This document shows, in pieces, positions 13,797-37,741 of a stretch of DNA of 64,000 nucleotides. The DNA is from Spirochaetia bacterium. GTDB lineage: Bacteria; Spirochaetota; Spirochaetia; UBA9216. The DNA is taken from assembly GCA_965140585.1 (NCBI GenBank), contig OZ223267.1:192001-256000 (forward strand), read 5' to 3'. Every line of letters begins with the position of its first letter. Within the stretch, counting starts at the first letter, position 1. The notes under the pieces are model-generated. The model saw only the letters and a list, made by a program, of their open reading frames with translations, made no database searches and was not told the DNA's origin. The position numbers and the translations under genes were made by a program.

Positions 13797-13906
<110 letters not shown>

Positions 13907-14036: not shown

Positions 14037-14120
14037 AGTCTGGAAGGATGGCTGAGAATAAATAGTAGCAACGCTACTTTCTCCGGTCATTGGAGAAGCC
14101 TTCGGCGTCTCTGCCCGGCT
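14037..14120 (+). ncRNA. 84-nt structured trailer, copy 2
   Basis: Identical to 5262-5345, followed by poly-T; operon homology ends ~14143. Confidence 0.45.
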
Positions 14121-14267
14121 TTTTTTTTATTAATTTGAAAAAATCCCTGTATCTAAAAAATGGACTCTGTTGAAATTGTATGGCTAAATATAATATAGTG
14201 TTTAATAGCCTTTGGAGATGGAGAAAAAATCATCGAAAATTCTGAATATTCTGACGCTAAAAAAGAT

Positions 14268-15017: not shown

Positions 15018-15063
15018 TGATTTGAATTGTGTAATAAATAATCCTGATTTTGCAGTTTAGTGC

Positions 15064-15092
15064 TTGCATATCATGTGGATACTTCGTAAAGT
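15064..15092 (+). promoter_or_regulatory. sigma70-type promoter of peptidase/ABC operon
   Basis: TTGCAT-17-TAAAGT. Confidence 0.55.
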
Positions 15093-15099
15093 AAACAAA

Positions 15100-15133
15100 G
15101 TTCATTATATGGACAAGAGTTCATATAATGAAC
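15100..15133. promoter_or_regulatory. two tandem IclR-type operators GTTCAT-N3-ATG(A/G)AC
   Basis: GTTCATTATATGGAC (15100-15114) and perfect GTTCATATAATGAAC (15119-15133) just downstream of the promoter. Confidence 0.65.
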
Positions 15134-15156
15134 ATAAGCTATTTCAGGAGCGTCTA

Positions 15157-17315: not shown

Positions 17316-17349
17316 TAATTCAAAGGATAAAAATACTAAGGGGTAGAAA

Positions 17350-18987: not shown

Positions 18988-19009
18988 TCGCAGGCGAAGT
19001 ATTTAATAG

Positions 19010-19042
19010 GGTTGGAGTAATGCTTTTAGGCTTACTCCGGCC
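19010..19042 (+). terminator. hairpin after SBP gene (partial terminator/mRNA stabiliser)
   Basis: GGTTGGAGTAA...TTACTCCGGCC followed by T-rich tract. Confidence 0.55.
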
Positions 19043-19064
19043 ATTATTTTTTATGGAGACAGGA

Positions 19065-20033: not shown

Positions 20034-20926
20034 TGGTTGATACAAATAAGTTAAATGACAGTGGTGTTGGTATTAAAAACAGGAATAAAGACCTTCTTGA
20101 TGCCTTTTTGCAGAACCGGATGGGAATGGCAGGATTTATCATGTTTTCGTTTTTTCTGTTGATTGCTATTTTTGGACCTCTTTTTCTTCCCTACGATCCG
20201 CTTGAGTTCGGCAACGGTACCGATGTTTTTGCCGCTCCGAGTCTTGAGCATCCGCTTGGACTTGATGATATGGGAAGGGATGTAATGAGAGCTCTCATTT
20301 CCGGATCCCGGGTTTCCCTTCTGGTAGGGGTTCTTGCCACGGTTATCTCAATGATGCTCGGTACGGTAATAGGAATTGTTTCCGGATATTTCGGCGGCAA
20401 AACCGACATGCTCCTTATGCGTTTTACCGATATCTTTCTTGTTCTGCCCTGGCTGCCTCTGATGCTTGTAATAGCCGCCATACTGGGCAGTAATATCTGG
20501 AATATTATCTTTGTTATCGGTCTTACAAGCTGGTCGGGAACTGCAAGAGTAGTGCGTGCCCAGACCCTTACCGTAAAGGAGAATCAGTATGTTGAAAGGG
20601 CCAGGGCTATAGGAGCCCGACATCTACATATAATGTTCAAGCATATAATGCCGAATGTTTTCCCGCTTGTATTTGCAAATACAATACTGATTGCAGCAGT
20701 AGCTATTATATCCGAGACAACACTAAGCTTTCTCGGCATGGGAGATACACTTCGCCCAAGCTGGGGAATGATGCTTCATTTTGCGTTTGAGTCAGGGGCT
20801 TCCAGTGCCGGCGCTTTCTGGTTTCTTATTCCACCGGGAATATGCGTAATTCTTGTTGTTCTTTCGTTTACATTCCTCGGATACGCTTTTGATGAAATAC
20901 TGAATCCCAAACTGAGGCGCAGGTAG
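20030..20926 (+). CDS. peptide ABC permease (DppC/OppC-like)
   Basis: HPLGLDDMGRD, YVERARAIGA, LSFLGMG, PSWG. Confidence 0.95.
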   Translation: MMVDTNKLNDSGVGIKNRNKDLLDAFLQNRMGMAGFIMFSFFLLIAIFGPLFLPYDPLEFGNGTDVFAAPSLEHPLGLDDMGRDVMRALISGSRVSLLVGVLATVISMMLGTVIGIVSGYFGGKTDMLLMRFTDIFLVLPWLPLMLVIAAILGSNIWNIIFVIGLTSWSGTARVVRAQTLTVKENQYVERARAIGARHLHIMFKHIMPNVFPLVFANTILIAAVAIISETTLSFLGMGDTLRPSWGMMLHFAFESGASSAGAFWFLIPPGICVILVVLSFTFLGYAFDEILNPKLRRR

Positions 20927-20930
20927 ATAC

Positions 20931-21896
20931 ATGGAATTACTTGAAATAAATAATCTTGTTACAAATTTTACTATAAAGGCCGGCCTGGTTCAGGCTGTAA
21001 ACGGCGTCAGCTTCAGTCTCGGAAAGGGAGAAACCCTTGGCGTAGTCGGAGAATCCGGTTGCGGTAAATCAACACTTGCGCTTTCGATTGCGAGGCTTCT
21101 TCCCAGGGAGGGAGAATCCACCGGAGGCGAGGTGATTCTTGACGGTACAGACCTGCTGAAACTTTCTGAAGAGGAGCTCAGGCAGAGAAGGTGGAAGGAT
21201 TTTTCTATAGTATTTCAGGGTGCGATGAATGCTCTTAATCCGGTAATGAAGGTTGGAGAACAGATAGCCGAGGTTATAATGCTTCATGAAAAATATACTC
21301 CGAAGGCCGCAAAGGAAAAGGTCATTGAGCTTTTTGAACTTGTGGAAATAGACAAGGCAAGGGTTAACAACTATCCGCATGAATTCAGCGGCGGTATGAA
21401 GCAGCGGGTAATGATTGCAATGGCACTCGCATGTTCCCCAAAACTTCTCATTGGTGATGAACCGACCACCGGTCTTGATGTAATTGTCCAGGCGCAGATA
21501 CTCGATCTGCTTCGAAGGCTGTGCAGTTCAAAAGATATGGCTTTGATTCTTATTACACATGATCTTTCTATTCTTTCAGAGATTGCTGACAAGGTTGCCG
21601 TAATGTATGCTGGAAACATCGTTGAAATAGGAAAAACCGAAGATGTTCTGCAGAAGAGCGCTCACCCGTACACCATTAAGCTGGCTGAATCGTTTCCTGA
21701 TGTTAACGGAAAACGGGAAATGGTTTCATCAATACCCGGTACCCCTCCGAATCTTATTAATCCGCCCTCCGGATGCAGGTTTCATCCCAGATGCGATTCT
21801 GCCTGCGATGTTTGCAGATCTGAGGTACCGGAATATCAGGATCTTGGAAACGGCCACTTTGTTGCCTGCCACAGCGGGTCAGGAGTTTTAAAATGA
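20931..21896 (+). CDS. peptide ABC ATPase (DppD/OppD-like)
   Basis: GESGCGKS, FSGGMKQR, DEPTT, C-terminal Cys oligo_HPY domain. Confidence 0.95.
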   Translation: MELLEINNLVTNFTIKAGLVQAVNGVSFSLGKGETLGVVGESGCGKSTLALSIARLLPREGESTGGEVILDGTDLLKLSEEELRQRRWKDFSIVFQGAMNALNPVMKVGEQIAEVIMLHEKYTPKAAKEKVIELFELVEIDKARVNNYPHEFSGGMKQRVMIAMALACSPKLLIGDEPTTGLDVIVQAQILDLLRRLCSSKDMALILITHDLSILSEIADKVAVMYAGNIVEIGKTEDVLQKSAHPYTIKLAESFPDVNGKREMVSSIPGTPPNLINPPSGCRFHPRCDSACDVCRSEVPEYQDLGNGHFVACHSGSGVLK

Positions 21897-22897
21897 GTGC
21901 TGTAATTGAAGCTAAGGATCTTAAGATTCATTTTGATATACGGAAGAGTTTTTTCGAAGAAGTTATAAAAAACAATAAAAGCCGGGTGAAAGCGGTAGAC
22001 GGAATCAACCTTGAAATAAAAAAGGGTGAGATTGTCTCGCTGGTAGGTGAGAGCGGAAGCGGTAAAACTACACTTGGAAAGGCCTTGCTTTCGCTGGTTC
22101 CTAAAACAGACGGGACAATCCTTTTTGACGGGAATGAGATTCACGCCAAAAAAGGCCGGGAACTCTCACTTTTTAGACAGAAAGCTCAGATAATCTACCA
22201 GGACCCGTATAAGTCTCTTAACCCGAGGTATCTGATTCAGGATATAGTAGCTGAGCCGCTGGTTGTAAACAGGCTGGTAAAAACGGCTGCTGAACAGCGT
22301 GAAAGGGTTATAGAAGCCCTCACCTGGGCCGGACTCACACCGGCAGAAGATTATCTTCACAGGTTTCCGCATGAACTTAGCGGTGGACAGAGGCAGCGTG
22401 TTGCTATTGCCACCACGCTGATCATGAAACCGGAATTCATTGTTGCTGATGAACCTGTTTCTATGCTGGATGTGTCAATAAGGGCGGATATTCTGAAATT
22501 GATGGTAGGTCTTCGTGACCGCATGGGGATTTCATATCTGTTTATCACGCACGACCTGTCCCTGGCCTGGCTGATATCGGATCGGATTGCAATTATGTAT
22601 CTTGGAAAGATTGTGGAGATAGGTCCGCCAGCACTTATTGTGGGTGATTCGCTTCATCCCTATACAAGGGCACTCATTGATGTAATGCCCCATGTTAAAT
22701 CCTCAGGTAAGAGAAAAAAATCGATCCTGAAAGGTGAAACTCCAAATCCAATAAACCTTCCGTCCGGCTGCAGGTTCCATCCAAGATGCCCGGTTGCACA
22801 GGATATCTGCAGGACTCAGGAACCTGCTCTGCGAAAGATGAAGGATAATCATTTTGTCTCATGCCACCTTGCAGAATCTTTTGCGGCGGAGGGCTGA
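21893..22897 (+). CDS. peptide ABC ATPase (DppF/OppF-like)
   Basis: GESGSGKT, LSGGQRQR, DEPVSMLD, GCRFHPRCP. Confidence 0.95.
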   Translation: MSAVIEAKDLKIHFDIRKSFFEEVIKNNKSRVKAVDGINLEIKKGEIVSLVGESGSGKTTLGKALLSLVPKTDGTILFDGNEIHAKKGRELSLFRQKAQIIYQDPYKSLNPRYLIQDIVAEPLVVNRLVKTAAEQRERVIEALTWAGLTPAEDYLHRFPHELSGGQRQRVAIATTLIMKPEFIVADEPVSMLDVSIRADILKLMVGLRDRMGISYLFITHDLSLAWLISDRIAIMYLGKIVEIGPPALIVGDSLHPYTRALIDVMPHVKSSGKRKKSILKGETPNPINLPSGCRFHPRCPVAQDICRTQEPALRKMKDNHFVSCHLAESFAAEG

Positions 22898-22898
22898 A

Positions 22899-24071
22899 AT
22901 GGCAGGTTTGAAAGAGATTACAAATGCCGTTGAGAAATACAGGCTGGAACTTGTCGAGATGGCCGGAACCATTCACCATAATCCGGAAATCGGCGGCAAT
23001 GAGTTTATTGCCATGGAGGCAATCTGCGGTTTCCTTGAAAGGCACGGCTTCGATGATGTTCAGCGGGGTGTCGGAGAGCTGAAAACAGCATTCACAGCTG
23101 TATGTAAGGTTAACGGCGGAGGCGGACTGCGGATCGGTTTCTGTGCCGAATATGATGCCCTGCCCGAAATAGGTCATGCCTGCGGGCATAACCTGATAGG
23201 CGGCGCCAGTGTTGCCGCCGCTGTGGCCCTTGCAGAGTGCGGTGCTGATGTTCCGTTTGAGGTTGTTCTGATAGGGACTCCGGATGAAGAGATAAGCGGC
23301 GGTAAGGTCGATTTGATAAAACTTGGTATATTTGATGATATCGATGCCGCCATGATGTTTCATTCCGGCTACGGTACTTCAATTCATACCGAGTCACTTG
23401 CATGCAAAACCTGGCTGTTCGGCTACAGGGGTAGAAACGCACATGCAGCATCCGAGCCGGAAAAGGGCAGAAATGCACTGGACGGTGTAATGCTTACTTT
23501 TACCAACATTAATTACCTGAGGCAGTATCTTAGAGAGGATACGCGCATTCACGGAATAATCAAGGAAGGCGGAAAAGCCAGCAACGTAGTTCCTGATTAC
23601 GCGGTTGCCGAAATATGTATCCGTTCGAAGGACAATGATTACCTTGCATATATTGAAGAGCGCGTCATGGACTGTGCGAAAGCCGGTGCTCTCGCATCGG
23701 GGACAGAGCTTGAAGTGACCCTTTACGGCAATCCATATGATGCAATGGAAAGCAATACCGTTATGGAAGGCCTTTTCAGTGAGAGTCTTGATGAAATTGC
23801 TTATGTTGATATAGCAAGGCATACCGAAAAAACCGGTTCAATAGATATGGGAAATGTGAGCAGGGTAGTGCCTGCGATTCATCCTGTGATTTCGATTTCT
23901 GAGGATGTAGTCATAGGCCATACCCGTGAATATGCGGCTTTATGCGACACACAGAAGGCGTACAATATTATGCTTGAAGTCGGTAAGGCCCTTGCTATGA
24001 CCGGTTATAAAATTATCACAACTCCCGGAATAATTGAGCAGATAAAATCAGAGTTCATCAGCAAGGGCTGA
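22899..24071 (+). CDS. M20D amidohydrolase/dipeptidase (ACY1L2/PM20D2/HmrA-like)
   Basis: HHNPEIG, EYDALP, GHACGHNLI, GTPDEE, MFH, GSIDMGNVS; ATG after GGAGG. Confidence 0.9.
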   Translation: MAGLKEITNAVEKYRLELVEMAGTIHHNPEIGGNEFIAMEAICGFLERHGFDDVQRGVGELKTAFTAVCKVNGGGGLRIGFCAEYDALPEIGHACGHNLIGGASVAAAVALAECGADVPFEVVLIGTPDEEISGGKVDLIKLGIFDDIDAAMMFHSGYGTSIHTESLACKTWLFGYRGRNAHAASEPEKGRNALDGVMLTFTNINYLRQYLREDTRIHGIIKEGGKASNVVPDYAVAEICIRSKDNDYLAYIEERVMDCAKAGALASGTELEVTLYGNPYDAMESNTVMEGLFSESLDEIAYVDIARHTEKTGSIDMGNVSRVVPAIHPVISISEDVVIGHTREYAALCDTQKAYNIMLEVGKALAMTGYKIITTPGIIEQIKSEFISKG

Positions 24072-24135: not shown

Positions 24136-25368
24136 TCAGATAATATCAACAGCCTCCCGGATTACTTTGACAGTATATTCCAGCTCTTCCTGAGTATGCC
24201 GGTAGCAGATGTATCCATGATGGTAAGGCTGCTGGAATACTCCGTTTCTTATCAGATAGGTATAGAAGTCGTTTCTGCGTTTTTTATATGCGGGATCAAT
24301 GTCCTTATTGAATGTGATGAATGACATGGGCGGAATGCCTGAGAGTTCAATGCCCTTTCCGGAATTTTCAAGTATCCGGTTTACCTCATTCATATACCAG
24401 GTACCCTTTTCCCAAATTCTATCGAGGATGCTGTCACGTTCAAGGATCTCGATAGTTTTTAACGCGGCAACATAGCCAAGACTGTTCGGGAAATAAGTGG
24501 AAGAGATAAAAACATCCGATTCCCCCTTTTTCATAATTTCAGATTTGCCGGTAACAGCGGCGATGGAATAGCCGTTTGCCATGGCCTTTCCGAATACAGC
24601 CATATCAGGAGTTACTCCGTAGTATTTCTGGGCTCCTCCTATACTGACTCTGAAGCCAGAGCGAACTTCATCAAAGATAAGAACCGCTCCGTATTTCCGG
24701 GCCAGTTCCTGCACGCCTTCAAGGAAGCCCTCTGCCGGTTCCTCCATATTATGTGCCAGCGGATGCCCCACTGGAGTAACTATTATAGCGGCTGTCTGAT
24801 CTCCTTGAGTTTTCATCAGATCTTCCAGGCCCTGCAGGTCGTTGTAGTGAAACTCAAATACATCCTCGTACAGTTTTGCCGGAATTCCGCCCTTCACCTC
24901 TACACACCAGTCATGCCAGCCGTGGTAACCGCAGCGCATTATCTTGTCTCTGCCGGTATAGCTTCTTGCAAGCCTCACTGCTGTTGTGGTTGCATCGGAA
25001 CCGGTTTTAACGAAGAGGCTCATCTCGGAACATGGAATTATTTCGCTGAGTTTTTCGGCAAGTTCATTCTGGTAGGACTGAGTCAGGGAAAAGCAGAACC
25101 CCTTGTCGCGTATCTGTTTTATTACAGCCTCATCAACCTCCGGTTCTCTGTACCCCAGGATGATAGGGCCGTAGGCGCACAGGTAGTCTATATATTCGTT
25201 TCCGTCGATATCGGTGATTTTACCGCCCTTTCCCTCCTCGATAAAAACAGGATATTCTCCGTCCACGAAGTTATAGGGTCTTCTTATTCCGAGAACTCCT
25301 CCGGGAATCAGTTTTTTTGCTCTTTCAAGTTCTTTGAATGATTGGGTCAGTTTTTTTTCAGGAACCAT
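24136..25368 (-). CDS. kat: 3-aminobutyryl-CoA aminotransferase (class III PLP)
   Basis: PGGVLGIRRPYNFV, YGPIILGYRE, GYHGWHDWCVEVKGGIP, FGKAMANG, QPYHHGYICYRH match my recollection of Cloacimonas Kat; adjacent to kam genes, kal absent. Confidence 0.88.
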   Translation of the reverse strand: MVPEKKLTQSFKELERAKKLIPGGVLGIRRPYNFVDGEYPVFIEEGKGGKITDIDGNEYIDYLCAYGPIILGYREPEVDEAVIKQIRDKGFCFSLTQSYQNELAEKLSEIIPCSEMSLFVKTGSDATTTAVRLARSYTGRDKIMRCGYHGWHDWCVEVKGGIPAKLYEDVFEFHYNDLQGLEDLMKTQGDQTAAIIVTPVGHPLAHNMEEPAEGFLEGVQELARKYGAVLIFDEVRSGFRVSIGGAQKYYGVTPDMAVFGKAMANGYSIAAVTGKSEIMKKGESDVFISSTYFPNSLGYVAALKTIEILERDSILDRIWEKGTWYMNEVNRILENSGKGIELSGIPPMSFITFNKDIDPAYKKRRNDFYTYLIRNGVFQQPYHHGYICYRHTQEELEYTVKVIREAVDII

Positions 25369-25535: not shown

Positions 25536-25557
25536 GCTGATTCATTTATGAATCAGC
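25536..25557. promoter_or_regulatory. perfect palindrome, putative activator UAS for kat
   Basis: GCTGATTCAT-TT-ATGAATCAGC, ~115-135 bp upstream of the -24 element. Confidence 0.7.
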
Positions 25558-26970
25558 TCGTTCGCCGACGCCGTAATACTTCATTTTCCGGACTATAGTA
25601 GACTGGCTTATCTCAAGTGCGGCTGCCATTTTTCTTGTGAACCGGTATTTCTGCCAGGCATTGCTAATAAGCTTTTTTTCTAAGGCTTCAACTGCTTCAG
25701 TCAGCGGCTGTATGTGCACGGATAATCCCTCAGGCTTTATAATAACTTCCTCTTTAATATAATCAGACAGATCCTCCCTGGTTATAAGTTTTCCGGAGGA
25801 GAGAACTGCTATTCTTTCAATTGTATTCTCCAGCTCCCTGGTATTTCCGGGCCAGTCGTAGGATTCAAGCAGAACAAGGGCTTCAGGAGAAAACCGCAGC
25901 TGTTTATTAAATTTGAGATTGAAGACCTCTATGAAATGATTTATCAGCGGGATAATATCATCCCTGCGCTCCCGGAGAGGCGGAATATGAATAGGTACAA
26001 CATTCAGTCTGTAATAGAGATCCTGGCGGAATGTTCCTTCCTGCACCATTTTTTTCAGGTTTTTATTGGTGGCTGATATAATTCGTACATTAATCTTAAT
26101 TGGTTTCCGGCCCCCGATACGGGTAATTTCCTTTTCCTGTATGGCTCTCAGCAGTTTAACCTGCAGGTTCAGACTAATATCACCTATTTCATCGAGAAAG
26201 AGGGTTCCGCCCTCGGCTACCTCAAAAAGTCCCTGCTTTCCGCCGCGATCAGCTCCGGTAAACGAACCTTTTTCGTAGCCGAATAGTTCACTTTCAAGAA
26301 GATTCTCGGGAATAGCGCTGCAGACCGCGGTGATAAGCGGCTTATTCACACTCGTTCCGGCATTATGGATAGCCCGTGAAATTATTTCCTTTCCTACTCC
26401 GGATTCTCCTGTTATGAGGACGGTGGAATCGACTTCACCAAGTCTGAGGGCAAATTTCATAATGTCTTTCATCTGCTGTGATGAAATAATGACGTGCTCC
26501 ATTTTCATCTGCTGAAGCCGGAGATTAAGAACCTCCATACGGTAAAGTTCATTTCTTTTTTCCGTCTGGGCAAGGCGCGTTTCAAGATTTTTAAGATCGG
26601 CCATATCCCGGAGAGTTGTAACAACACGGGTGATATTTCCGCTTTCATCGAAGATAGGCGTACCGGTTAGAATCACTTCCTTCCCGTTGGGGAGGGTTTC
26701 AGCAACGCTTGTAGTTGCTCTGGATTCGAGAACCAGGGTGCTGACTGATTTGTTATACACACCGGTTTCTACAAGCTCATCGACAGTCTTACCGGTAGTT
26801 TCTGATGATTTTATTCCTGTGATGTCTTCGAAGGCTTTATTTGTGCGCAGTGTAATTCCGTTGCCGTCTGTGATATATATGCCGTCTGTCACTGAATCAA
26901 TAATGGTGTCAAGCTCTCTGATAAGCTGCTGCCTGTTGGCAAGTTCAGCTTCAAGTTCTTTGATTTTCAA
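25546..26970 (-). CDS. PAS-domain sigma54-dependent activator (KamR-like)
   Basis: PAS; GESGVGKE, ESELFGYEKGSFTGA (GAFTGA variant), LFLDEIG, WPGNTREL; C-terminal HTH. Confidence 0.93.
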   Translation of the reverse strand: MKIKELEAELANRQQLIRELDTIIDSVTDGIYITDGNGITLRTNKAFEDITGIKSSETTGKTVDELVETGVYNKSVSTLVLESRATTSVAETLPNGKEVILTGTPIFDESGNITRVVTTLRDMADLKNLETRLAQTEKRNELYRMEVLNLRLQQMKMEHVIISSQQMKDIMKFALRLGEVDSTVLITGESGVGKEIISRAIHNAGTSVNKPLITAVCSAIPENLLESELFGYEKGSFTGADRGGKQGLFEVAEGGTLFLDEIGDISLNLQVKLLRAIQEKEITRIGGRKPIKINVRIISATNKNLKKMVQEGTFRQDLYYRLNVVPIHIPPLRERRDDIIPLINHFIEVFNLKFNKQLRFSPEALVLLESYDWPGNTRELENTIERIAVLSSGKLITREDLSDYIKEEVIIKPEGLSVHIQPLTEAVEALEKKLISNAWQKYRFTRKMAAALEISQSTIVRKMKYYGVGERADS

Positions 26971-27094: not shown

Positions 27095-27111
27095 CTGGCA
27101 TGCTTCTTGCA
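27095..27111 (+). promoter_or_regulatory. sigma54 -24/-12 promoter of kam operon
   Basis: CTGGCATGCTTCTTGCA (GG-N10-GC). Confidence 0.88.
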
Positions 27112-27156: not shown

Positions 27157-28719
27157 TTGGAAGAAAAAATACGAATAGATAAGGATCTACTTGGCAGATG
27201 CAGAGATGCCGCTGTCAGAATTTCCGATAATGTTATGTCGTCCATAACCGGCCGTACCACTACCTCGGTTGAACGAACAATTGCCAGGCTGCTGGGGATA
27301 GACGGTGTGGATGAGCAGGGAATACCGCTGCCCAATGTTCTTGTTGAACAGCTTAAGACGCATGGAAAACTTGATGACGGAATCTTTTACTGGTTAGTAA
27401 ATGCGATGATAGAGACCGGTAAATCACCGCGGGAAATAGCTTTGGCTGTAGGAAAGGGAGAGTATGTAATAACAGACTCAAGGCAATATTCCGACGATGA
27501 AATCCGGCGTACTGCCGGTCCGCTTCTTGAAGAGCGTATTAGTCTTTTTGATGAATCTATTGAGCTGAGGAAAGAGCTTCATTCAAAATATCCTGCAGGG
27601 ATGACGCCTCTTCTGTACGTCATTGTCGCTACTGGCAATATATACGAGGATACAGTGCAGGCTAAAGCCGCCGCAAGGCAGGGGGCTGATATAATTGCAG
27701 TTATCCGTACAACGGCCCAGAGCCTTCTTGATTACGTCCCCTTCGGACCAACAACCGAGGGCTTCGGCGGAACCTATGCTACTCAGGAAAATTTCCGCAT
27801 TATGAGAAAGGCTCTGGATGAGGTCACCGAAGAAACCGGAAGATACATTCACCTTGTTAATTATGCTTCGGGACTCTGCATGCCCGAGATTGCAGTTATG
27901 GGTGCCTTTGAAGGCCTTGATATGATGCTCAACGACGCAATGTATGGAATCCTGTTCCGTGACATCAACATGCAGCGGACATTCATCGATCAGTACTTTT
28001 CAAGGATGATAAATGCCTGCGCAGGGATAATTATAAATACGGGTGAGGACAATTATCTGACTACAGCTGATGCTATTGAAAACGGTCACACTGTTCTTGC
28101 ATCACAGTTTATAAACGAGGAACTTGCCCTGCGCTCGGGGATGCCCAAGCATCTTATAGGACTGGGGCACGCCTTTGAGATTAATCCGGAAAAGGAAGAC
28201 GGCTTTCTGCTTGAAATAGCACAGGCACAGCTTATAAGGCAGATATTTCCGGAATGCCCGATAAAGTATATGCCGCCAACAAAGTATATGACCGGAAATA
28301 TCTTTAAGGGGCATATTATGGACGGGATGTTCAATCTGGCTTCTGTGATGACCGGGCAGAGTATTCAGCTGCTGGGAATGATGACAGAAGCCATTCACAC
28401 TCCCTTTATTCAGGACAGGGCACTCAGTATCCAGAACGCAAAATATATCTTCAACAATGCCAGGCACCTTCATGATGAAATAAGCTACCGTCCCGACGGA
28501 ATTATTCAGTCCAGAGCTGATGAGATTCTCAGACAGACCACCGATATGCTTGAAACAGTTGCGGAGAAGGGGCTGATGAAGGCTATAGAAGATAAAATGT
28601 TTGCCGATATTTCACGGCCCCGTGAAGGCGGTAAGGGTAATGACGGAGTTACAGGCATTAGCGCTAATTACATCAATCCATTTATGGACATCTTCAAAAA
28701 AAGGCTGGGACTGGTATGA
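27157..28719 (+). CDS. kamD: lysine 5,6-aminomutase alpha subunit
   Basis: YVIVATGNIYED, RTTAQSLLDYVP, NYASGLCMPEIA, KYMPPTK. Confidence 0.97.
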   Translation: MEEKIRIDKDLLGRCRDAAVRISDNVMSSITGRTTTSVERTIARLLGIDGVDEQGIPLPNVLVEQLKTHGKLDDGIFYWLVNAMIETGKSPREIALAVGKGEYVITDSRQYSDDEIRRTAGPLLEERISLFDESIELRKELHSKYPAGMTPLLYVIVATGNIYEDTVQAKAAARQGADIIAVIRTTAQSLLDYVPFGPTTEGFGGTYATQENFRIMRKALDEVTEETGRYIHLVNYASGLCMPEIAVMGAFEGLDMMLNDAMYGILFRDINMQRTFIDQYFSRMINACAGIIINTGEDNYLTTADAIENGHTVLASQFINEELALRSGMPKHLIGLGHAFEINPEKEDGFLLEIAQAQLIRQIFPECPIKYMPPTKYMTGNIFKGHIMDGMFNLASVMTGQSIQLLGMMTEAIHTPFIQDRALSIQNAKYIFNNARHLHDEISYRPDGIIQSRADEILRQTTDMLETVAEKGLMKAIEDKMFADISRPREGGKGNDGVTGISANYINPFMDIFKKRLGLV

Positions 28720-29471
28720 GCGTAAATTCAGAAATAAGACCCTACGGAGATACTCTTAACGACGGAATGGTGCAGATAAGTTTTTCCATCCCCATGCAGG
28801 CGGGACCGGAAGCTTCTGAAGCAGCTAAACAGCTTGCTGAGCAGATGGGGCTTCAAAATGTGAGCAATGTATCAAGTCAGGATTTAAGCGAGGGATTCAG
28901 CTTTCACATTCTCTACGGTAAGTGCAGTGCTTCTGTGGACGTATCGGAAATCAGCATTCCAAAGGTCGAAACTCCGGTTCTCAGTTTCTATGAAATTAAC
29001 GATCTTATAAAAGAGAAAATCGGAAGAAAGATTAATGTTGTCGGGGCCTGCACCGGTTTTGACGCTCATACAGTAGGCCTGGATGCAATAATGAATATGA
29101 AAGGCTATGCCGGCGAATACGGTCTTGAGCGTTATCCCGAAATAAACACCTGGAATCTCGGAAGCCAGGTTCCCAATGAAGATTTGATAAAAAAGGCAGT
29201 TGAGGTGAAAGCCGATGCTATCCTCGTCTCACAGGTGGTAACTCAGAAGGATATCCATATCAAAAATCTGACGAATCTGGTTGAACTGCTTGAGGCGGAA
29301 AATATAAGAGACCGCTTTATTCTGATAGCCGGGGGCCCCCGTATAAGTCATGAGCTTGCCCTGGAACTCGGGTTCGATGCCGGCTTCGGTCCCGGCTCAC
29401 TGCCTCCAGATGTTGCATCATTTATTGCACAGCTTCTGGAGAAAAGACTGCCGGAACAGCAGGGGGTGTAG
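28716..29471 (+). CDS. kamE: lysine 5,6-aminomutase beta subunit (B12-binding)
   Basis: PYGDTLNDG, DAHTVGLDAIMNMKG (DxHxxG plus PLP Lys), LVSQVVTQ. Confidence 0.97.
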   Translation: MSVNSEIRPYGDTLNDGMVQISFSIPMQAGPEASEAAKQLAEQMGLQNVSNVSSQDLSEGFSFHILYGKCSASVDVSEISIPKVETPVLSFYEINDLIKEKIGRKINVVGACTGFDAHTVGLDAIMNMKGYAGEYGLERYPEINTWNLGSQVPNEDLIKKAVEVKADAILVSQVVTQKDIHIKNLTNLVELLEAENIRDRFILIAGGPRISHELALELGFDAGFGPGSLPPDVASFIAQLLEKRLPEQQGV

Positions 29472-29472: not shown

Positions 29473-30297
29473 TTGGAAAAGCTGATAATCACCGCCGCGA
29501 TCTGCGGTGCGGAAGTTACAAAAGATGATAATCCCAATCTTCCGGTTACGGCAGCGGAGCTTGCGTCTACGGCGCTTGAAGCAGAACTTGCAGGTGCCTC
29601 GGTTATTCACCTTCATGTAAGGGATGAGCAAGGACTGCCGACCCAGAGGATACAGTACTTTAGGGCGGCAGTTGAAGCAATGAAGCAGGCCGGGGTCAGC
29701 GCGATAATTCAGCCCTCCACCGGAGGCGCCGCGGGGATGTCCGCCGCTGAACGTATAGAGGTTCTTGATCTGATTCCGGAAATGGCCACACTTGACTGCG
29801 GTACTATAAACTTCGGGGACGAGGTTTTTACCAATGATCTGCCTCTGATGAGAAATATTGCGCAGAGAATGAAGGCTGATAATATTATTCCCGAGTTTGA
29901 ATGCTTTGAAACGGGCCATATTTACAACGCCCTACGGCTTGGCAAGGATGGTCTTCTTCCGGAACATCTGCATTTCAACCTTGTTCTCGGCGTTCCGGGA
30001 GCTATGCCTGCTTCGGTAAAAAACCTGCTCTTTCTTGTTGAGCAGCTTCCACAAGGTGCTACATGGACAGCTTCCGGAATCGGATCGCATCAGCTGCCTG
30101 TTGCCCTGCATACGATGATGCTCGGAGGTCATGTCAGGGTTGGATTTGAGGACAATATTTATTACTCAAAGGGCAGGCTTGCCAAAAGCAATGCCGAACT
30201 CGTTGCTAGAATTACAAGAATTGCGGAAGAAGCCGGACGGGAGATTGCCTCCCCGGCGGAGGCCAGAGCTATACTTAATATCAGGGAGAAGAAATAA
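29473..30297 (+). CDS. kce: 3-keto-5-aminohexanoate cleavage enzyme (BKACE)
   Basis: KLIITAAICGAE, IHLHVR, QPSTGG, GGHVRVGFEDN; TTG start after GGGGGT. Confidence 0.95.
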   Translation: MEKLIITAAICGAEVTKDDNPNLPVTAAELASTALEAELAGASVIHLHVRDEQGLPTQRIQYFRAAVEAMKQAGVSAIIQPSTGGAAGMSAAERIEVLDLIPEMATLDCGTINFGDEVFTNDLPLMRNIAQRMKADNIIPEFECFETGHIYNALRLGKDGLLPEHLHFNLVLGVPGAMPASVKNLLFLVEQLPQGATWTASGIGSHQLPVALHTMMLGGHVRVGFEDNIYYSKGRLAKSNAELVARITRIAEEAGREIASPAEARAILNIREKK

Positions 30298-31332
30298 ATG
30301 AAGAAGGGAAATATTTTCGGCCTGCACAGGGTTATTGAGCCGGAAGGGGTACTGCCTCAGCCGGCTCTCAAGATAGATAATTCAATGGATATCTATGATA
30401 ACGAGATACTTATAGATGTTGATACACTTAACATAGATTCCGCAAGTTTTACACAGATAGAAAAAGCCTGCGGTGGTGATGAGAAAAAAATCGGTGAGAT
30501 GATTCTCTCTATAGTAAACGAGCGGGGCAAGATGCAGAATCCGGTTACCGGCTCAGGTGGAATGCTGATAGGGACTATTGCCGGTATCGGCGAAAAGCTG
30601 AAAGATCGTGATTTGACCGTGGGTGAAAAAATCATCAGCCTCGTATCGCTATCTCTTACGCCACTTAAGATTGAAAAGATCATCGAGGTGAAATCAGATA
30701 TCGACCAGGTGCGGGTAAAGGCTCAGGCTGTTCTGTTTGAATCGGGAATTTACGCCAAACTTCCGGAGGGGATGGAAGAATCGCTTGCCCTGGCTGTCCT
30801 TGATGTAGCCGGAGCCCCCGCACAGACGGCGAAGCTTGTTCATCCCGGTGATACAGTTCTGATAATCGGAGCCGGAGGAAAATCAGGACTGCTCTGTCTG
30901 CATGAGGCAAAAAAACGTGCGGGTGTCAGCGGAAGGGTAATAGGCCTGTCCCACAGCAAAGGCGGGGTTGAGCGTATTATTAAAACAGGCCTGGCCGATA
31001 TTGTCCTTCAGGCTGATGCATCGAAACCCGTTGAACTTTATGAAATGATCATGAAAGCGACAGACGGCAGGCTTGCCGATATCGTTATAAACAATGTCAA
31101 CGTTCCCGATACCGAGATGGGCTCAATTCTATGTACAAAAGATGAGGGCACCCTGTATTTCTTCAGCATGGCTACAAGCTTTACAAAGGCCGCTTTGGGC
31201 GCTGAGGGAGTAGGAAAGGATATCAACATGATAATCGGAAACGGATACACCAAGGACCACGCGGAAATTACACTGCAGGTTCTTAAGGAAAATCCTGTAC
31301 TCAGGAAAATGTTTGAGGAACTTTATACCTGA
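30298..31332 (+). CDS. kdd: L-erythro-3,5-diaminohexanoate dehydrogenase
   Basis: GLHRVIEP, NIDSASF, NPVTGSGGML, GAGGKSG, FSMATSF. Confidence 0.96.
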   Translation: MKKGNIFGLHRVIEPEGVLPQPALKIDNSMDIYDNEILIDVDTLNIDSASFTQIEKACGGDEKKIGEMILSIVNERGKMQNPVTGSGGMLIGTIAGIGEKLKDRDLTVGEKIISLVSLSLTPLKIEKIIEVKSDIDQVRVKAQAVLFESGIYAKLPEGMEESLALAVLDVAGAPAQTAKLVHPGDTVLIIGAGGKSGLLCLHEAKKRAGVSGRVIGLSHSKGGVERIIKTGLADIVLQADASKPVELYEMIMKATDGRLADIVINNVNVPDTEMGSILCTKDEGTLYFFSMATSFTKAALGAEGVGKDINMIIGNGYTKDHAEITLQVLKENPVLRKMFEELYT

Positions 31333-32543
31333 TGATACCGCAGGCAGCTGTTGAAAAATACATAAATTATAAAAGCGTAACCGGTCTTCTCTCGGAACTC
31401 GCCGGTATACACAGCCCTTATTTCAGGGAAGCCGGGATTGTAGATTTTGTTTACAGCTGGCTTGCGGACAGACATCTGCCGGCGGAGTTTCACAGTTTTT
31501 CCGAAACAAAGATTACCGGAGTAAGCGGCAGGAATGTCGTCGGCGAGCTGCGCGGAAGCAGCGGCGGTCCGAAACTTCTTATAAACGGTCATCTTGATAC
31601 AGTGGATATATGCGAGGGGTGGACAAGAAATCCTCTTGCCGCTGAAATTGCCGACGGCAGACTCTATGGTCTGGGTGCTTTGGATATGAAAGGCGGGGTT
31701 GCCGCTGCAATGCTTGCTATAGAGGCCTTCAGCATGATTAAACCGGAGTTCCGGGGATGTTTGCAGTATACATTCGTAAGCGGTGAGGAGGGACCCTACG
31801 GACTTGGAACTGATGCCCTGATTAATGACGGAATAATCAGCAGGGCCGATATCGCACTTGTTCCGGAGCCCAGCGCCGCCTTCTGCGGGGTTGCGTTTCC
31901 CTGCCTCTGCCTCGGGGCCAGGGGTGGGTGGCATTTTACTGTGAAGTTTACCGGACGCAGCGCCCATGCCGCGGCTCCTGAGGATGGGCTGAATGCGGTC
32001 TCCGAGGCGTCAAGGTTTATATGCGAGCTTGAGAAAACAGCTCTTCCGGAAAGAGCGCCGCTTGGAAGTGGTTCGATCTGTATTACCGGAATTAGCGGAG
32101 GGGGAAAGACCTGCTCTGTTGCGGAGGATGCGTCTGTTACGGTGCTGCGGCATGTAACACTCGGTGAGGACCCGCAGCTGCTTATGCAGGAGATTGATGC
32201 TGCTGCGCAGCGCGCCGGAATCCGCTGTGACTATGAGGTCAAGTTTCGTGGGGCTCCGGGGCCGGGAAGCGAAGGCTTTCATCCCTATGTTGTGGATAAA
32301 AACAGTCCTGAAAGCAGACTCCTGATGGAAAGCATCCTAGATGTTACCGGCCGGGAGGCTGATACAGCTTATTTTTCAAGCATCGGTGATTTTAATTATA
32401 TAAGCAGCAGGGCGGGAATCCCGGCCTATATCTTCGGTCCGGACGGCGGAAACTACCACGGTCCGGATGAATACGTAATAATTGATTCAGTGGTTGAAAC
32501 CGCGAAAGTAATACTTGATTTTATTATCAGATTTTTTAGGTAG
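31332..32543 (+). CDS. M20A deacylase/peptidase embedded in kam operon
   Basis: NGHLDTV, GLGALDMKGG, GEE, PEP, YHGPDE; translationally coupled to kdd (TGATG). Confidence 0.9.
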   Translation: MIPQAAVEKYINYKSVTGLLSELAGIHSPYFREAGIVDFVYSWLADRHLPAEFHSFSETKITGVSGRNVVGELRGSSGGPKLLINGHLDTVDICEGWTRNPLAAEIADGRLYGLGALDMKGGVAAAMLAIEAFSMIKPEFRGCLQYTFVSGEEGPYGLGTDALINDGIISRADIALVPEPSAAFCGVAFPCLCLGARGGWHFTVKFTGRSAHAAAPEDGLNAVSEASRFICELEKTALPERAPLGSGSICITGISGGGKTCSVAEDASVTVLRHVTLGEDPQLLMQEIDAAAQRAGIRCDYEVKFRGAPGPGSEGFHPYVVDKNSPESRLLMESILDVTGREADTAYFSSIGDFNYISSRAGIPAYIFGPDGGNYHGPDEYVIIDSVVETAKVILDFIIRFFR

Positions 32544-32549: not shown

Positions 32550-33833
32550 ATGAAAAAATACAGCAGAGTCAGCTATAAGGATGTGCCGCTTTACAGTAAT
32601 GTAACGGAAGAGCAATGGAACGACTGGCGATGGCAGATGAAAAACTGCATTACCGATATTGAAACACTTTCAAAGATTACAGAGCTTGATGAAAAAGAAA
32701 TTGAAGATCTTGAAAAAACGCTTAAAAAGTTCAAAATGTCCATCACCCCCTATTACGCCATGCTTATGGACAGGAGCTACAAACTCTGCTCAGTCAGACT
32801 TCAGGCAATTCCGAGGGTAGAGGAACTTAATTACGATGAATCGGATATGGACGATCCTCTTCATGAGGATGTTGATTCATCGGTGCCTGGACTGACTCAC
32901 AGGTATCCTGACCGGGTTCTTCTTCTTGTTACGAGTATCTGTTCAATGAACTGCCGGCACTGTACACGTCGGAGACTCGTCGGCCAGAAGGATACCCATA
33001 TGAGCTGGGACCGTATTCAAATGGCAATTGATTACATACGGGAGCATACCGAGGTAAGGGATGTCCTTATATCCGGAGGTGATCCGCTTACGCTGGCTGA
33101 TTCATATCTTGAACGGATACTTAAAGCTCTGCGGGAAATCCCGCATGTTGAGATAATCCGGATAGGAACAAGAACACCGGTAGTAATGCCGATGAGGATA
33201 ACCGATGAACTCACGGACATGCTGAAAAAATATCATCCACTCTATATAAATACTCATTTCAACCATTACTCCGAGGTTACCTATGAGGCAAAGCAGGCAT
33301 GCGAAAAACTTGCCAACGCGGGAATTCCGCTCGGCAACCAGAGTGTTCTTCTTCGTGATGTAAACGACTGTCCGAGGATTATGAAAAAGCTTGTGCATGA
33401 GCTTCTGATGATCCGGGTCAAACCCTATTATATCTACCAGTGCGATCTTTCAAGCGGCATATCGCATTTCAGGGTTTCGGTTTCAAAGGGCATTGAGATT
33501 GTTGAAAGCCTGCGCGGCCATACAACAGGTATGGCTGTTCCTACATACGTAGTTGATGCCCCCGGCGGCGGCGGAAAAATCCCTCTTATGCCCAATTATC
33601 TTCTATCGCATTCGGACAAACGTTATGTGCTCAGAAACTATGAGGGGGTAATAACCACCTACACTCAGCCGGCCAATATCTTTTCGGAATGCTGGTGCGA
33701 GCTGTGTAAAAATGATGAGTACGGGCCTCTGGATGGAGTGGCTAAACTGCTCAACGGAAAAAAGCTTGCCCTGGAACCAAAAGGTCTTGTCAGGAGGATG
33801 AGGAGCCTGAATGGTAAAAAACAGGGCGAATAG
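32550..33833 (+). CDS. kamA: lysine 2,3-aminomutase (radical SAM, PLP)
   Basis: CSMNCRHC, THRYPDR, YYIYQCD, DAPGGGGKIP, C-terminal CxCxxC Zn site. Confidence 0.97.
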   Translation: MKKYSRVSYKDVPLYSNVTEEQWNDWRWQMKNCITDIETLSKITELDEKEIEDLEKTLKKFKMSITPYYAMLMDRSYKLCSVRLQAIPRVEELNYDESDMDDPLHEDVDSSVPGLTHRYPDRVLLLVTSICSMNCRHCTRRRLVGQKDTHMSWDRIQMAIDYIREHTEVRDVLISGGDPLTLADSYLERILKALREIPHVEIIRIGTRTPVVMPMRITDELTDMLKKYHPLYINTHFNHYSEVTYEAKQACEKLANAGIPLGNQSVLLRDVNDCPRIMKKLVHELLMIRVKPYYIYQCDLSSGISHFRVSVSKGIEIVESLRGHTTGMAVPTYVVDAPGGGGKIPLMPNYLLSHSDKRYVLRNYEGVITTYTQPANIFSECWCELCKNDEYGPLDGVAKLLNGKKLALEPKGLVRRMRSLNGKKQGE

Positions 33834-34860
33834 GCTCATAGATATTATCAATGACAGCTGTGTCGAATCTCTTGCGATAATAGGTCTTGCCAAGAACGCG
33901 GGCAAGACCGTTACCATGAACACCCTTATTAAGGAAACTCAGCCGCGGGGGCAGAAGATTACCGTAGTTTCATACGGACGTGACGGTGAGGATACTGATG
34001 CTATAACCCTGAAAAAAAAGCCTCATATTTTTATACCTGCCGGTTCATATTTCGTGACAGGCTCGGAAATACTCAAGCGTACCGGCAGGCAGGCCAGGGT
34101 TATCTGTGAACTGGAAGACAGGACCCGTATAGGAAGGGTCTGCCTGTATGAGAATGATTCCGCGGGCTTTGAGGTAGAACTGATAGGAGTTAACAGCAGA
34201 AGAGGTATTGCCGGGCTGAAAGAACAGCTTCCTGCTGATTCAGAGCTTCTGCTTGTTGACGGGGCTCTTGACCGCCGCAGTTCCGCGGTGCCGGAGCTGG
34301 CAGACGGAATAATCCTTGCAACCGGAGCTGTCGTAGGTAATACCGAGGAGCTCATTGCAGAACGGACTATGGCGGAAATTGAGCGTCTGATGCTCCCGGT
34401 ACATGAAGAGCCTCCGGAATTAATCGGTAAAATTCTTGGCGAGGGTCTTTCAGCCGTTATTTACGAGGGTGAGATAAAATCGGCCGGGAATACTCTTTTT
34501 AATATTTCTGATTCTGTCGATTTCAGCAGTATCGCCAGGGATAGCATCCTTGTCCTCAACGGGGCGCTCACCGACCGTCTTGCAGAAACTCTGCTTGCGG
34601 GGCGTGCCGAGAACTTTTCAATAGTTGTCCGGGACGGCACCCGTGTTTTTCTTAACCAGCGCAATATGAAATTATTCAGAATAAAAGGAATCAAACTCTA
34701 TGTTCAGTCCGGGATTAAACTGCTTGCCCTGACGATTAATCCCTACAGCCCCTACGGTTTTTCTGCGGATTCGGAAACTCTGTCTGCAAAAATCAGGGAA
34801 TACCTTGAAAGAGCGGGGCGGGATATTCCTGTTTATGATGTGCTCTCTGAATCTTATTAA
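33811..34860 (+). CDS. kamB: lysine 5,6-aminomutase reactivase subunit KamB-like
   Basis: IIGLAKNAGKT P-loop, GRDGE, VDGALDR, ILATGA, TINPYSP; position after kamA. Confidence 0.8.
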   Translation: MVKNRANRLIDIINDSCVESLAIIGLAKNAGKTVTMNTLIKETQPRGQKITVVSYGRDGEDTDAITLKKKPHIFIPAGSYFVTGSEILKRTGRQARVICELEDRTRIGRVCLYENDSAGFEVELIGVNSRRGIAGLKEQLPADSELLLVDGALDRRSSAVPELADGIILATGAVVGNTEELIAERTMAEIERLMLPVHEEPPELIGKILGEGLSAVIYEGEIKSAGNTLFNISDSVDFSSIARDSILVLNGALTDRLAETLLAGRAENFSIVVRDGTRVFLNQRNMKLFRIKGIKLYVQSGIKLLALTINPYSPYGFSADSETLSAKIREYLERAGRDIPVYDVLSESY

Positions 34861-35865: not shown

Positions 35866-37741
35866 ATGAAAAAGATAAAAGTTCCTTCAGTAATTATTTT
35901 GATTTCAGTCTTGTTTTCAGGATGCGACCCCGATGAACCCGGGGTGGATAGTGATTTATATCTGTATATAGGCTTGTCCCATGACAGCGCCGGAAGCGGA
36001 GCTCTTGATGAGGCAGTTACATCAGTAAACGGGGTGTATTCCGCCGGGGATGGAATAACAGCCACGGCCAAGGCAGATTCCGGGCACCTTTACCGGCTGG
36101 TATGATTCAAAGGGCGGCGGCATGCTTATATCTGCTGAAAACCCGTATATCTTCGATATTGAAGCTGATACTTATCTATATGCCTCTTTTTCCGAGACGA
36201 CAACCGTGGTTGATGATTCAGACGCTCCGGCTGAGGTTGCGGATTTTTCCATCTCGCATATCGGCGGAGGCGTTGCCGTTATGGACTGGACTGATCCTGC
36301 GGACAGCGATTTTGACCATGTTGAGATTTTTGTATCGCCTGCTGAATCTCCTGCCGTTACAAGCACAACTTCAGTACGTGACGGTATGGAAAGCGCAACA
36401 CTTACCGATCTTATTAGTGAAACCTTCTATAATGTAACATTAAAGACTGTAGATACCGTGGGCAATACCTCTTCCAGTATATCTTTCACTGTATACATGC
36501 CTGCTACCTTTACTGCAGTTAGTTCATTTCTCACTAATAGTGATGGAGCCGCCTTAAACAGCACCTTAACCTCAGATCTTGCCGGATACTATATTCTGGC
36601 AGTCGATGTGGATCTTAATAGCGTTAGCTGGACACCGGTAGGCAGCGATTCAACCCCTTTTACCGGTATCTTTGACGGCGGCGGGCGGTCAATCTCCAAC
36701 CTGACGATTAACGCATCCGGATCGGATAATTATCAGGGATTTTTCGGTTATAACTCCGGTAAATTAATTAATATATGTCTGACAGAATCCTCAGTTATAG
36801 GTTCAGGTTATGTGGGAGCTCTGGCTGGAAATAATTCCGGCGGCATAATAATTGATTGCAATATCGCTGGTTATGCTACAGGAACAAGCAATATAGGTGG
36901 TCTTGCTGGAGCAAACACAGGCACAATCACCAACTGTTCTTTCTCTGGAAATGTCTCGGGAACGACTAATAATATAGGTGGCCTGATTGAATACAACGCC
37001 GGACAGGTATTCAGCAGTCATTCCACAGGCACAATCGCGGCATATGAGCATGTTGGCGGACTGATTGGAAAGAACGATAATGCTGTCTACAACAGTTATG
37101 CTACAGGCTCTGTATCAGTCGCAGACAACTATGCCGGCGGGCTGACTGGAGAAAATTACGGTGGAATAATTATTAACTGCTATGCCACTGGAGCTGTTTC
37201 AGGAGAAGGGTATTATTATGAAGGTCTGGCTGGAAAAAATAGCGGCTCTGTTACAAACAGTTATTCCACGAGATCTGTAACAGGGACATCCTATGCCGGC
37301 GGGTTCGTTGGAGAGAATAATGGGGGTACAGTAACGGATTGTTGTGCAACAGGCAATGTCTCAGGTCAAAACATTTTTAACGGACTATCTGGATTGCAGA
37401 CTTCTTATGCGGTAGGAGGGCTGGCGGGAAACAATACCGGTGTTATTATGAACTGCTATTCTGCAGGTTCAGTTTCCGGCTATAACAGCTTAGGTGCCCT
37501 TCTGGGTAATAACCCAAGCGTAGCTACAGTAAGCAATTGTTATGCTGACAGTTCAGTCAACAGCAGTTTATCTATAATCGGAACTAACAGCGGTACATTT
37601 ACAGGTTCCATGCTTTCGACAGCTCAGATGCAGTCTTCGGGATTTTACGGCAGCAGTTGGGACTTTGTAAATACCTGGGCGATCAGCAGCAGTGTTAACA
37701 GCGGTTATCCATATTTAAGAGAGCTGGTTGATTCCTATTGA
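35866..37741 (+). pseudogene. GLUG-repeat surface lipoprotein, frameshifted at ~36087
   Basis: Lipobox LFSGC; ADSGH continues as FTGWYD in the next frame; FN3/DUF4959-like WTDPADSDFDHVEI; PFTGIFDG; eight or more GGLxG repeats. Confidence 0.8.

Follow-up and report, generated by a model that had tools for sequence, protein, structure and literature searches.

The window analysed here, a 64-kb stretch of a Spirochaetia genome (contig OZ223267.1), carries a lysine-fermentation (kam) operon in which an additional gene, encoding an M20-family hydrolase, lies between kdd and kamA. Lysine fermentation is a main route from protein to butyrate and acetate in guts, digesters and sediments and, to our knowledge, its textbook gene set is without a hydrolase. 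The M20 product is given a slightly better than even chance of being a feeder deacylase, which would unblock a precursor to yield lysine or beta-lysine. The proposed enzyme would be a cytoplasmic, dimeric, two-metal M20A amidohydrolase, co-transcribed with the kam genes from a sigma-54 promoter, and would cleave an N-acyl or peptide-type amide bond on an imported diamino acid of the lysine type. The products would be a small acid together with either free beta-lysine, passing to lysine 5,6-aminomutase (KamDE), or free lysine, passing to lysine 2,3-aminomutase (KamA). We infer alike that the genes are co-transcribed, which way the flow runs and to which class the substrate belongs.

An M20A amidohydrolase gene in a kam operon

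The M20 open reading frame occupies positions 31332-32543 of the forward strand and encodes 403 residues from an ATG start, with no internal stop. The sequence at the upstream junction reads TGATG, such that the kdd stop codon (TGA, 31330-31332) shares one base with the M20 start codon (ATG, 31332-31334), and at the downstream junction the M20 stop codon (32541-32543) is followed after a 6-nt gap by the kamA start codon (ATG at 32550). These junctions bear out the first-pass annotation of this DNA, which had described an intact ArgE/DapE-type hydrolase gene between kdd and kamA, coupled to kdd by the overlap. The full gene order is kamD-kamE-kce-kdd-M20-kamA-kamB, with all seven genes on the same strand and either overlapping or nearly abutting. 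Compared with the canonical kam clusters of Fusobacterium nucleatum and 'Candidatus Cloacamonas acidaminovorans', the window has all core genes above their family cut-offs, in the Kat variant (no Kal was found in its genome by tblastn at E 1e-5), and differs in adding a hydrolase and in having no kamC beside kamB. By gene content, then, the operon is a known type of kam cluster, the Kat variant, with a single hydrolase gene added. No mention of a peptidase, hydrolase or deacetylase occurs in the searched text of PMC3149608.

Profile searches matched the protein to Pfam Peptidase_M20 (98.7 bits; gathering score 24.6) and M20_dimer (54.3 bits; gathering score 21). The top NCBIfam match was the ArgE/DapE subfamily TIGR01910, at 180 bits and below the cut-off of 217.6, and no curated NCBIfam equivalog cut-off was reached, including those for DapE, ArgE and YgeY. 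An AlphaFold2 model (predicted local distance difference score 94.3; predicted template-modelling score 0.92) was matched by Foldseek to DapE, ArgE and CPG2 with probability 1.00 and template-modelling (TM) scores of 0.73-0.82, and adopts the two-domain M20 fold. Among the other structures returned by the same search were di- and tripeptidases of the M20 family, as well as a carboxypeptidase and carnosinases. For M20A enzymes the available text of PMC10699109 lists five metal ligands (two His, one Asp, two Glu), a catalytic Asp-Glu pair and, on the dimerisation domain, an oxyanion His. In an alignment of the window protein with 79 relatives, where residues were assigned by motif order and spacing rather than by superposition, the metal ligands (H87, D118, E153, E179 and H376), the catalytic pair (D89 and E152) and the oxyanion histidine (H212) were conserved in all 80 rows.

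The closest public relative is encoded in locus L006, from a Spirochaetia metagenome-assembled genome (MAG), with 95% identity and an identical gene order. The ratio of nonsynonymous to synonymous substitution rates for the M20 gene against this relative was 0.105, indicating purifying selection, and the same pair gave 0.058 for kdd and 0.017 for kamA. Family members resemble one another closely, the top 120 database matches being 49-95% identical, 367-432 residues long and known by generic names only. No fused M20 form was found at E <= 1e-60 among proteins of 707-2015 residues, which is weak evidence. The N-terminus, on reading of its sequence, has no evident signal peptide, and the enzyme is for this reason predicted to be cytoplasmic. 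By every feature tested in the sequence and the model the protein is an M20A deacylase, yet one that falls outside any characterised subfamily.

A biosynthetic role in lysine synthesis, as DapE or as an N-acetyl-diaminopimelate deacylase, was considered in view of the fold. The nearest solved structures are those of DapE (Enterococcus faecium 7UOI and Haemophilus influenzae 5VO3; TM 0.80-0.82), which share the fold, the two-domain dimeric build and the pattern of metal and catalytic residues; some homologues are named 'succinyl-diaminopimelate desuccinylase', and dapF follows the M20 gene in one related locus (L016). However, the window protein is only 20-24% identical to these M20A deacylases and scores far below the cut-off of every DapE equivalog (NF006400, 120.6 against 374 bits; NF009557, 114.5 against 284; TIGR01246, 92.2 against 361.8; TIGR01900, 85.1 against 304.2), and its gene stands in a catabolic sigma-54 operon. 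Moreover, the window's genome (G000; 98.5% complete) has DapL (TIGR03542, 585 against 364.7 bits), and no DapD of either type was found in it (TIGR00965 and TIGR03532 unmatched) or in two of the other M20-carrying genomes, G311 and G369. With DapL present and DapD not found, the window's genome would make no N-acyl-diaminopimelate; a DapE role in this genome was rejected, and a biosynthetic role in general is very improbable.

The hydrolase gene had also been placed under the sigma-54 promoter of the operon. The site TGGCATGCTTCTTGCA at 27096-27111 on the forward strand (TGGCAT-N5-TTGCA) is the sole match in the window to TGGCAY-N5-TTGCW, which we take to be the sigma-54 consensus. At least one match occurred in 15 of 100 shuffles, so that the motif alone is weak, and the site is made credible by where it lies, 46 nt upstream of kamD and next to a gene for a sigma-54-dependent activator. 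The promoter-like site itself is thus credible, while transcription of the M20 gene from it, together with the kam genes, is deduced from the packing of the genes. Sigma-70 promoter-like and terminator-like sites between 24000 and 36200 were not above the shuffled background (17 against 18.3, and 14 against 12.4). Among the related loci described below, the strict motif was present before kamD in L006, L028 and L033, as well as at scattered other spots, and in L014 the sequence TGGCAC-N5-ATGCA, for which a relaxed pattern was required, lies ~85 nt before the M20 gene and adjoins a sigma-54 activator gene. Sigma-54 sites upstream of M20 in related loci are therefore suggestive, and on the relaxed pattern only.

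Distribution and neighbourhoods of the M20 gene

The relationship between the M20 gene and the pathway was studied in samples of 300 Spirochaetota and 300 Clostridia genomes. An M20 orthologue (E <= 1e-60) was present in none of the 14 KamD-bearing Spirochaetota; in the Clostridia, 23 genomes carried KamD and three of these the orthologue, one being the sample's centre genome, which left 20 KamD-bearing genomes without it. Because so many KamD-bearing genomes have no orthologue, the gene is, on its distribution, an accessory gene and not a core pathway step, and the earlier view of the hydrolase as an addition to the canonical pathway is upheld. The KamD loci of M20-less Clostridia usually have the order activator-kdd-kamA-kamB-kamC-kamD-kamE, with the activator in 8 of 10.

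Neighbourhoods were compared across the best 80 of 251 related stretches, with one genome per species and ~10 kb fetched for each; one of these, L085, had no clean M20 reading frame and was excluded from the tree and from the 80-row alignment. As had been anticipated, the gene recurs with kam genes, which were found within 10 kb in 14 of the 80 loci, across five lineages and in varied gene orders. This count is a floor, as 19 loci were shorter than 12 kb. Four Spirochaetota loci (L006, L007, L028 and L033) have kdd-M20-(NhaC)-kamA/kamB. Three loci from Halanaerobiales and an unclassified Bacillota MAG (L014, L015 and L024) have M20 and a carrier gene followed by the butyrate genes hbd-crt-ctfA-thl-ctfB; of these, L014 has the sigma-54 activator upstream of M20 and kamB-kamD-kamE after the butyrate genes, L015 and L024 carry kamA, and L024 carries kdd in addition. 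The order is kamA-M20 in two Atribacterota loci (L016, where dapF comes next, and L032) and kamA-M20-SSF in two from Synergistales (L077 and L083). Finally, in Tissierellia and in two isolates listed under Clostridium sp. (L045, L062 and L082) the M20 gene lies ~4 kb before activator-kdd-kamA-kamB. The M20 gene thus adjoins kamA in the window, L006, L016, L032, L077 and L083, and lies within the operon in L007, L028 and L033. This adjacency is compatible with the N6-acetyl-beta-lysine deacetylase proposed at the outset, although adjacency does not prove a substrate.

A quick maximum-likelihood tree did not unite the copies linked to kam genes in one clade; they were basal, beside a very long outgroup branch, so that the rooting is uncertain. 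Of the Spirochaetota copies, the six nearest to the window formed a single clade with a Shimodaira-Hasegawa-like approximate likelihood-ratio support of 97, and this supported clade indicates that the gene is an old resident of the Spirochaetota kam operon. The kamD gene of L006 (G301:C4:2215359-2216919) matched as two overlapping pieces, corresponding to query residues 1-176 and 166-520, which suggests a frameshift or an assembly error.

The genes within 6 kb of M20 were then tallied across the 80 loci. Carrier genes were frequent, with NhaC the commonest (35 loci), followed by AGCS (13) and SSF (4). An Amidohydro_3 (YtcJ-type) hydrolase gene, followed by one for a BTAD-domain regulator, was present in 28 of the 80, and a second M20 gene, of 548 residues, in 12. 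In the partner hydrolase the Pfam Amidohydro_3 domain spans the full length, and sequence searches of the PDB with the partner hydrolases returned only the uncharacterised hydrolases 3ICJ and 3IGH, which are the nearest solved structures, and weak DapE matches. The NhaC carrier has its second-best score as an arginine/ornithine antiporter, and nhaC is assigned to the sigma-54 ornithine-catabolism regulon in the part of PMC6615313 consulted. Carrier pairing of this kind usually points to a substrate that is imported in blocked form, and the combination of a hydrolase and a sodium-coupled carrier fits the import of such a precursor.

The kam loci of M20-less genomes differ from this arrangement in that 18 of 20 contained no NhaC carrier and no partner hydrolase. 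In one M20-less Clostridia genome, however, a YtcJ-type Amidohydro_3 gene lies between kamE and kce (locus L110; G409:C21:15700-35200, at 11723-17605), with a class-III aminotransferase gene and an NhaC carrier gene after kce; the Amidohydro_3 protein is 47% identical to that of L013. Judged by its position, the gene represents another type of additional hydrolase within a kam operon, and it links the carrier-plus-hydrolase island to lysine fermentation.

The carrier pairing also bears on a conjectural role in metabolite repair, in which the enzyme would strip acyl groups accidentally placed on beta-lysine or 3,5-diaminohexanoate by acetyl-CoA, acetoacetyl-CoA or acetyl phosphate. Such a role would suit a gene that is accessory and dispensable, that stands mid-pathway in the gene order and that has no carrier beside it in this window. 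It is quite improbable, as the regular presence of carriers elsewhere (35, 13 and 4 of the 80 loci) points to an imported substrate and the M20 gene is also found in genomes where KamA is the only pathway enzyme detected.

At the level of whole genomes, KamD was present in 66 of the 77 distinct M20-carrying genomes, compared with 23 of the 300 sampled Clostridia. As evidence of a link to lysine this was rejected on an ornithine control, since OraE, of ornithine fermentation, was present in 59 of the same 77, hardly fewer than KamD, and related genomes are not independent. KamD co-occurrence, taken from gene content, is a marker of an amino-acid-fermenting lifestyle rather than of lysine specifically, and for these reasons only physical linkage was counted. 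The same result raises the alternative that the enzyme is an ornithine-type deacylase, either ArgE-like or acting on N5-acetyl-ornithine, or a broad deacylase of acetylated basic amino acids that is loosely linked to lysine. Four loci (L029, L040, L055 and L057), belonging to Tindallia and two Clostridiaceae MAGs, do lie near ornithine-fermentation genes instead of kam genes: their M20 gene is found between the genes for aspartyl-tRNA synthetase (AspRS) and serine hydroxymethyltransferase (SHMT), 3-4 kb before a sigma-54 activator gene, with 2,4-diaminopentanoate dehydrogenase after the activator in three of the four and ornithine-aminomutase-like genes in L029 and L057. Housekeeping genes intervene in all four, however, and direct adjacency was seen only with kam genes. 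The ArgE equivalogs were missed (TIGR01892, 104.9 against 297.7 bits; NF005710, 77.5 against 412), and ten M20-carrying genomes had KamD without OraE as against three with OraE and no KamD. An ornithine-type or broad activity is accordingly held to be scarcely probable.

Besides the OraE count and the four ornithine-linked loci, several further observations weigh against a lysine feeder. Kam genes were not found in 66 of the 80 loci; 28 loci have the NhaC-M20-Amidohydro_3-regulator setting, and some loci place the gene amid housekeeping genes (AspRS, SHMT, TsaD, fumarase). The operon in the window has no carrier gene, and no NhaC or AGCS orthologue was found in its genome. No lysine or other riboswitch was found beside the M20 gene in the window or in 17 related loci with Rfam at the gathering threshold; the Rfam hits in those loci were limited to T-box leaders, lying downstream in L069 and L071, and to one c-di-AMP riboswitch at another place in L017. 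A literature search found no biochemically characterised member of this M20 family. The deblocking role first put forward for the enzyme is partly supported, by its accessory, operon-wired, recurrent and carrier-paired gene and by the kamA-M20 modules; KamD co-occurrence, which OraE matches, and the window's own operon, which has no carrier, do not speak for it.

Candidate substrates and direction of flow

The loci from Atribacterota and Synergistales were examined genome-wide. In all four genomes (G311, G327, G369 and G375, corresponding to L016, L032, L077 and L083) a kamA gene scoring above the TIGR03820 cut-off lies directly before M20, and a carrier gene lies directly after M20 in L077 and L083 and a few genes on in L016. 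No KamD, Kdd, BKACE-family protein or AblB above cut-off was found in any of the four. Because the rest of the pathway and AblB were not found, the M20 gene in these genomes appears coupled to KamA alone and, unless the incompleteness of the MAGs accounts for the missing genes, the kamA-M20-carrier modules tie the enzyme to the lysine/beta-lysine step. The simplest flow would run from acyl-beta-lysine through beta-lysine to lysine; the alternative would run from lysine to beta-lysine, with the fate of the latter unspecified. Only these KamA-only modules speak for a derivative of beta-lysine rather than one of alpha-lysine, and they do so indirectly. Two points tell on the other side: the four genomes are small MAGs (1.7-2.2 Mb), such that their missing genes are 'not found' rather than 'absent', and LysA was found in all four, above its cut-off in three and at 296.2 against 297.9 bits in G375. 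Lysine auxotrophy of these organisms was accordingly rejected, and with LysA present lysine salvage would not be obligatory.

The methanogen enzymes AblA and AblB, which make N6-acetyl-beta-lysine, provide the closest frame for the beta-lysine version. The kamA genes beside M20 exceed the cut-off of the AblA equivalog TIGR03820, and the proposed substrate is the product of AblA and AblB; the difference is that a hydrolase stands in the place of AblB, so that the flow would be reversed. No AblB above cut-off was found in the window's genome, in the four KamA-only genomes or in G377, and synthesis of N6-acetyl-beta-lysine by the window's own organism was rejected on this ground. If the enzyme is a feeder, an N-acyl-beta-lysine such as N6-acetyl-beta-lysine is a possible substrate class though the less probable one, the remainder falling to N-acyl-L-lysine. 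The genomic evidence does not tell apart N6-acetyl-beta-lysine, N6- or N2-acyl-lysine and a lysine dipeptide.

A different source of lysine would be supplied by a lysine-releasing peptidase or alpha-aminoacylase, which would convert Xaa-Lys or Lys-Xaa dipeptides, or N2-acyl-L-lysine, into L-lysine for KamA in the course of peptide fermentation. A point against an N6-acyl substrate is that, in the portion of PMC10699109 available, characterised M20A aminoacylases act on the alpha-nitrogen and the epsilon-lysine acylases are YtcJ-like amidohydrolases, the type of the frequent partner in 28 of the 80 loci. In Streptomyces two such families (SgAA and SmAA, M20A, alpha; SgELA and SmELA, YtcJ-like, epsilon) deacylate both lysine nitrogens, and members of the same families are neighbours here, a likeness at family level only; the Streptomyces enzymes differ in being secreted, coming from aerobes, having been studied for synthesis and having no link to fermentation genes. 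The peptidases and carnosinases returned by the fold search agree with release from peptides, as does a peptide-uptake cluster directly upstream in the window (14268-24071), with an Opp-type ATP-binding cassette (ABC) system, an LD-carboxypeptidase and two more M20 proteins, next to an operon that has no carrier of its own. Against this, NhaC, AGCS and SSF carriers transport small solutes rather than peptides, and in the kamA-M20-carrier modules, where no gene consuming beta-lysine was found, the release of lysine would leave KamA without a purpose. Release of lysine from peptides or alpha-acyl derivatives is considered rather unlikely.

Taking the feeder deacylase further, it is tentatively proposed that anaerobic bacteria of at least five lineages may carry a scavenging module, composed of a sodium-coupled carrier (NhaC, SSF or AGCS), an M20 deacetylase and often a YtcJ-like second amidohydrolase, which would harvest the acetylated diamino-acid osmolytes of their neighbours, chiefly the N6-acetyl-beta-lysine of methanogens. 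The freed beta-lysine would enter fermentation through KamDE and, in Atribacterota and Synergistales, KamA would run backwards to lysine. This full form of the proposal is a good deal less secure than the feeder role itself. In the open-access literature searched, no N6-acetyl-beta-lysine deacetylase was found described and no M20 or other hydrolase was found named in kam operons, although the supplement tables of PMC3149608 or PMC6615313 might list one; to that extent the route would, as first supposed, be an undescribed one for this pathway.

In the aerobic yodT-kamA operon of Bacillus an acetyltransferase, an aminotransferase and a CoA-transferase are present instead of kamDE-kdd-kce. The yodQ gene presumably adjoins kamA and the acetyltransferase gene yodP in that operon. 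The YodQ parallel is a lead only, as is the deacetylase of the Pseudomonas beta-lysine pathway. YodQ of Bacillus subtilis (MEROPS M20.A21) is described, in the text of PMC3625958 that was available, as an uncharacterised M20 homologue with relatives in Firmicutes, Spirochaetes and others.

Remaining genes of the region and significance

The operon begins with kamD (27157..28719, forward strand; lysine 5,6-aminomutase alpha subunit, NF052384, 855 bits against a cut-off of 600), which overlaps by 4 nt with kamE (28716..29471, forward; the B12-binding beta subunit, NF052385, 389.6 against 280). The kce gene for the 3-keto-5-aminohexanoate cleavage enzyme (29473..30297, forward; NF052387, 402.7 against 382) probably starts at the TTG codon at 29473, which is in frame right behind the kamE stop codon; the family match begins at residue 44 of the longer open reading frame. 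It is followed by kdd (30298..31332, forward; 3,5-diaminohexanoate dehydrogenase, NF052381, 269 against 200) and by the gene for the M20A amidohydrolase (31332..32543, forward), identified as such by its Pfam domains, conserved active site and predicted structure. Beyond it lie kamA (32550..33833, forward; lysine 2,3-aminomutase of the AblA type, TIGR03820, 596.8 against 525.4) and, overlapping it by 23 nt, the final operon gene kamB (33811..34860, forward; 5,6-aminomutase reactivase subunit, NF052386, 266.1 against 210). An 83-nt gap then separates kamB from an AraC-type gene, downstream of which positions 36122-37741 encode a protein of 539 residues that combines four GLUG motifs with a fibronectin type III domain.

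Divergent from the operon, the sigma-54-dependent activator gene (25546..26970, reverse strand) encodes PAS, AAA+ and HTH domains (Pfam Sigma54_activat, 226.5 bits; PAS; HTH_50) and reached no NCBIfam equivalog cut-off. On the same strand, 24136..25368 encodes a HemL-like class-III aminotransferase (Pfam Aminotran_3), with NCBIfam matches of the glutamate-1-semialdehyde aminomutase-like kind that are all below cut-off. This product is probably Kat (3-aminobutyryl-CoA aminotransferase), because Kat is described as HemL-like in the part of PMC3149608 seen and the genome search for Kal was negative.

KamC queries from L100 and L110 matched only MutS-like stretches of the window's genome, at 27-31% identity. 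A gap of ~1.5-3 kb separates kamB and kamD in 9 of 10 Clostridia kam loci looked at; the gene in the gap was read in L110, L111 and L100 (Spirochaetota), and scores as KamC in L110 and L100. Three more BKACE-family (Kce-like) matches occur in the window's genome (G000:C9:265995-266804, C6:276334-277173 and C3:64763-65098), one of them short and broken up by two stop codons.

The uptake cluster at 14268-24071, directly upstream of the Kat/kam region, appears to serve peptides or murein peptides and consists of an IclR regulator, an M20 protein, an LD-carboxypeptidase of family S66, a five-gene Opp-type ABC system and an M20D amidohydrolase. The second ArgE/DapE-type M20 encoded there scores above the TIGR01910 cut-off and is 30% identical to the operon M20. 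Together with the kam operon, the cluster reads as a peptide-to-lysine-to-acids island. Just upstream of this region, two tandem-oriented rRNA operons (16S, spacer tRNA, 23S, 5S) are located at 1-5130, cut by the start of the window, and at 8518-13906.

Cultivated carriers of the M20 gene include Clostridium subterminale, Geosporobacter ferrireducens, Natronincola peptidivorans and Anaerovirgula multivorans, and their existence makes the question of its function directly testable. Were the enzyme merely a lysine dipeptidase, the finding would be an ordinary one. A conserved accessory hydrolase and carrier would, however, show that lysine fermenters also use blocked lysine or beta-lysine, a pool that present models of anaerobic nitrogen and carbon flow leave out of account. 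Should N6-acetyl-beta-lysine prove to be the substrate, this would explain what becomes of a major methanogen osmolyte, and also the lone kamA genes of Atribacterota and Synergistales. The scavenging module, if true, would represent an undescribed cross-feeding from archaeon to bacterium, in which lysine 2,3-aminomutase would have a new physiological role.

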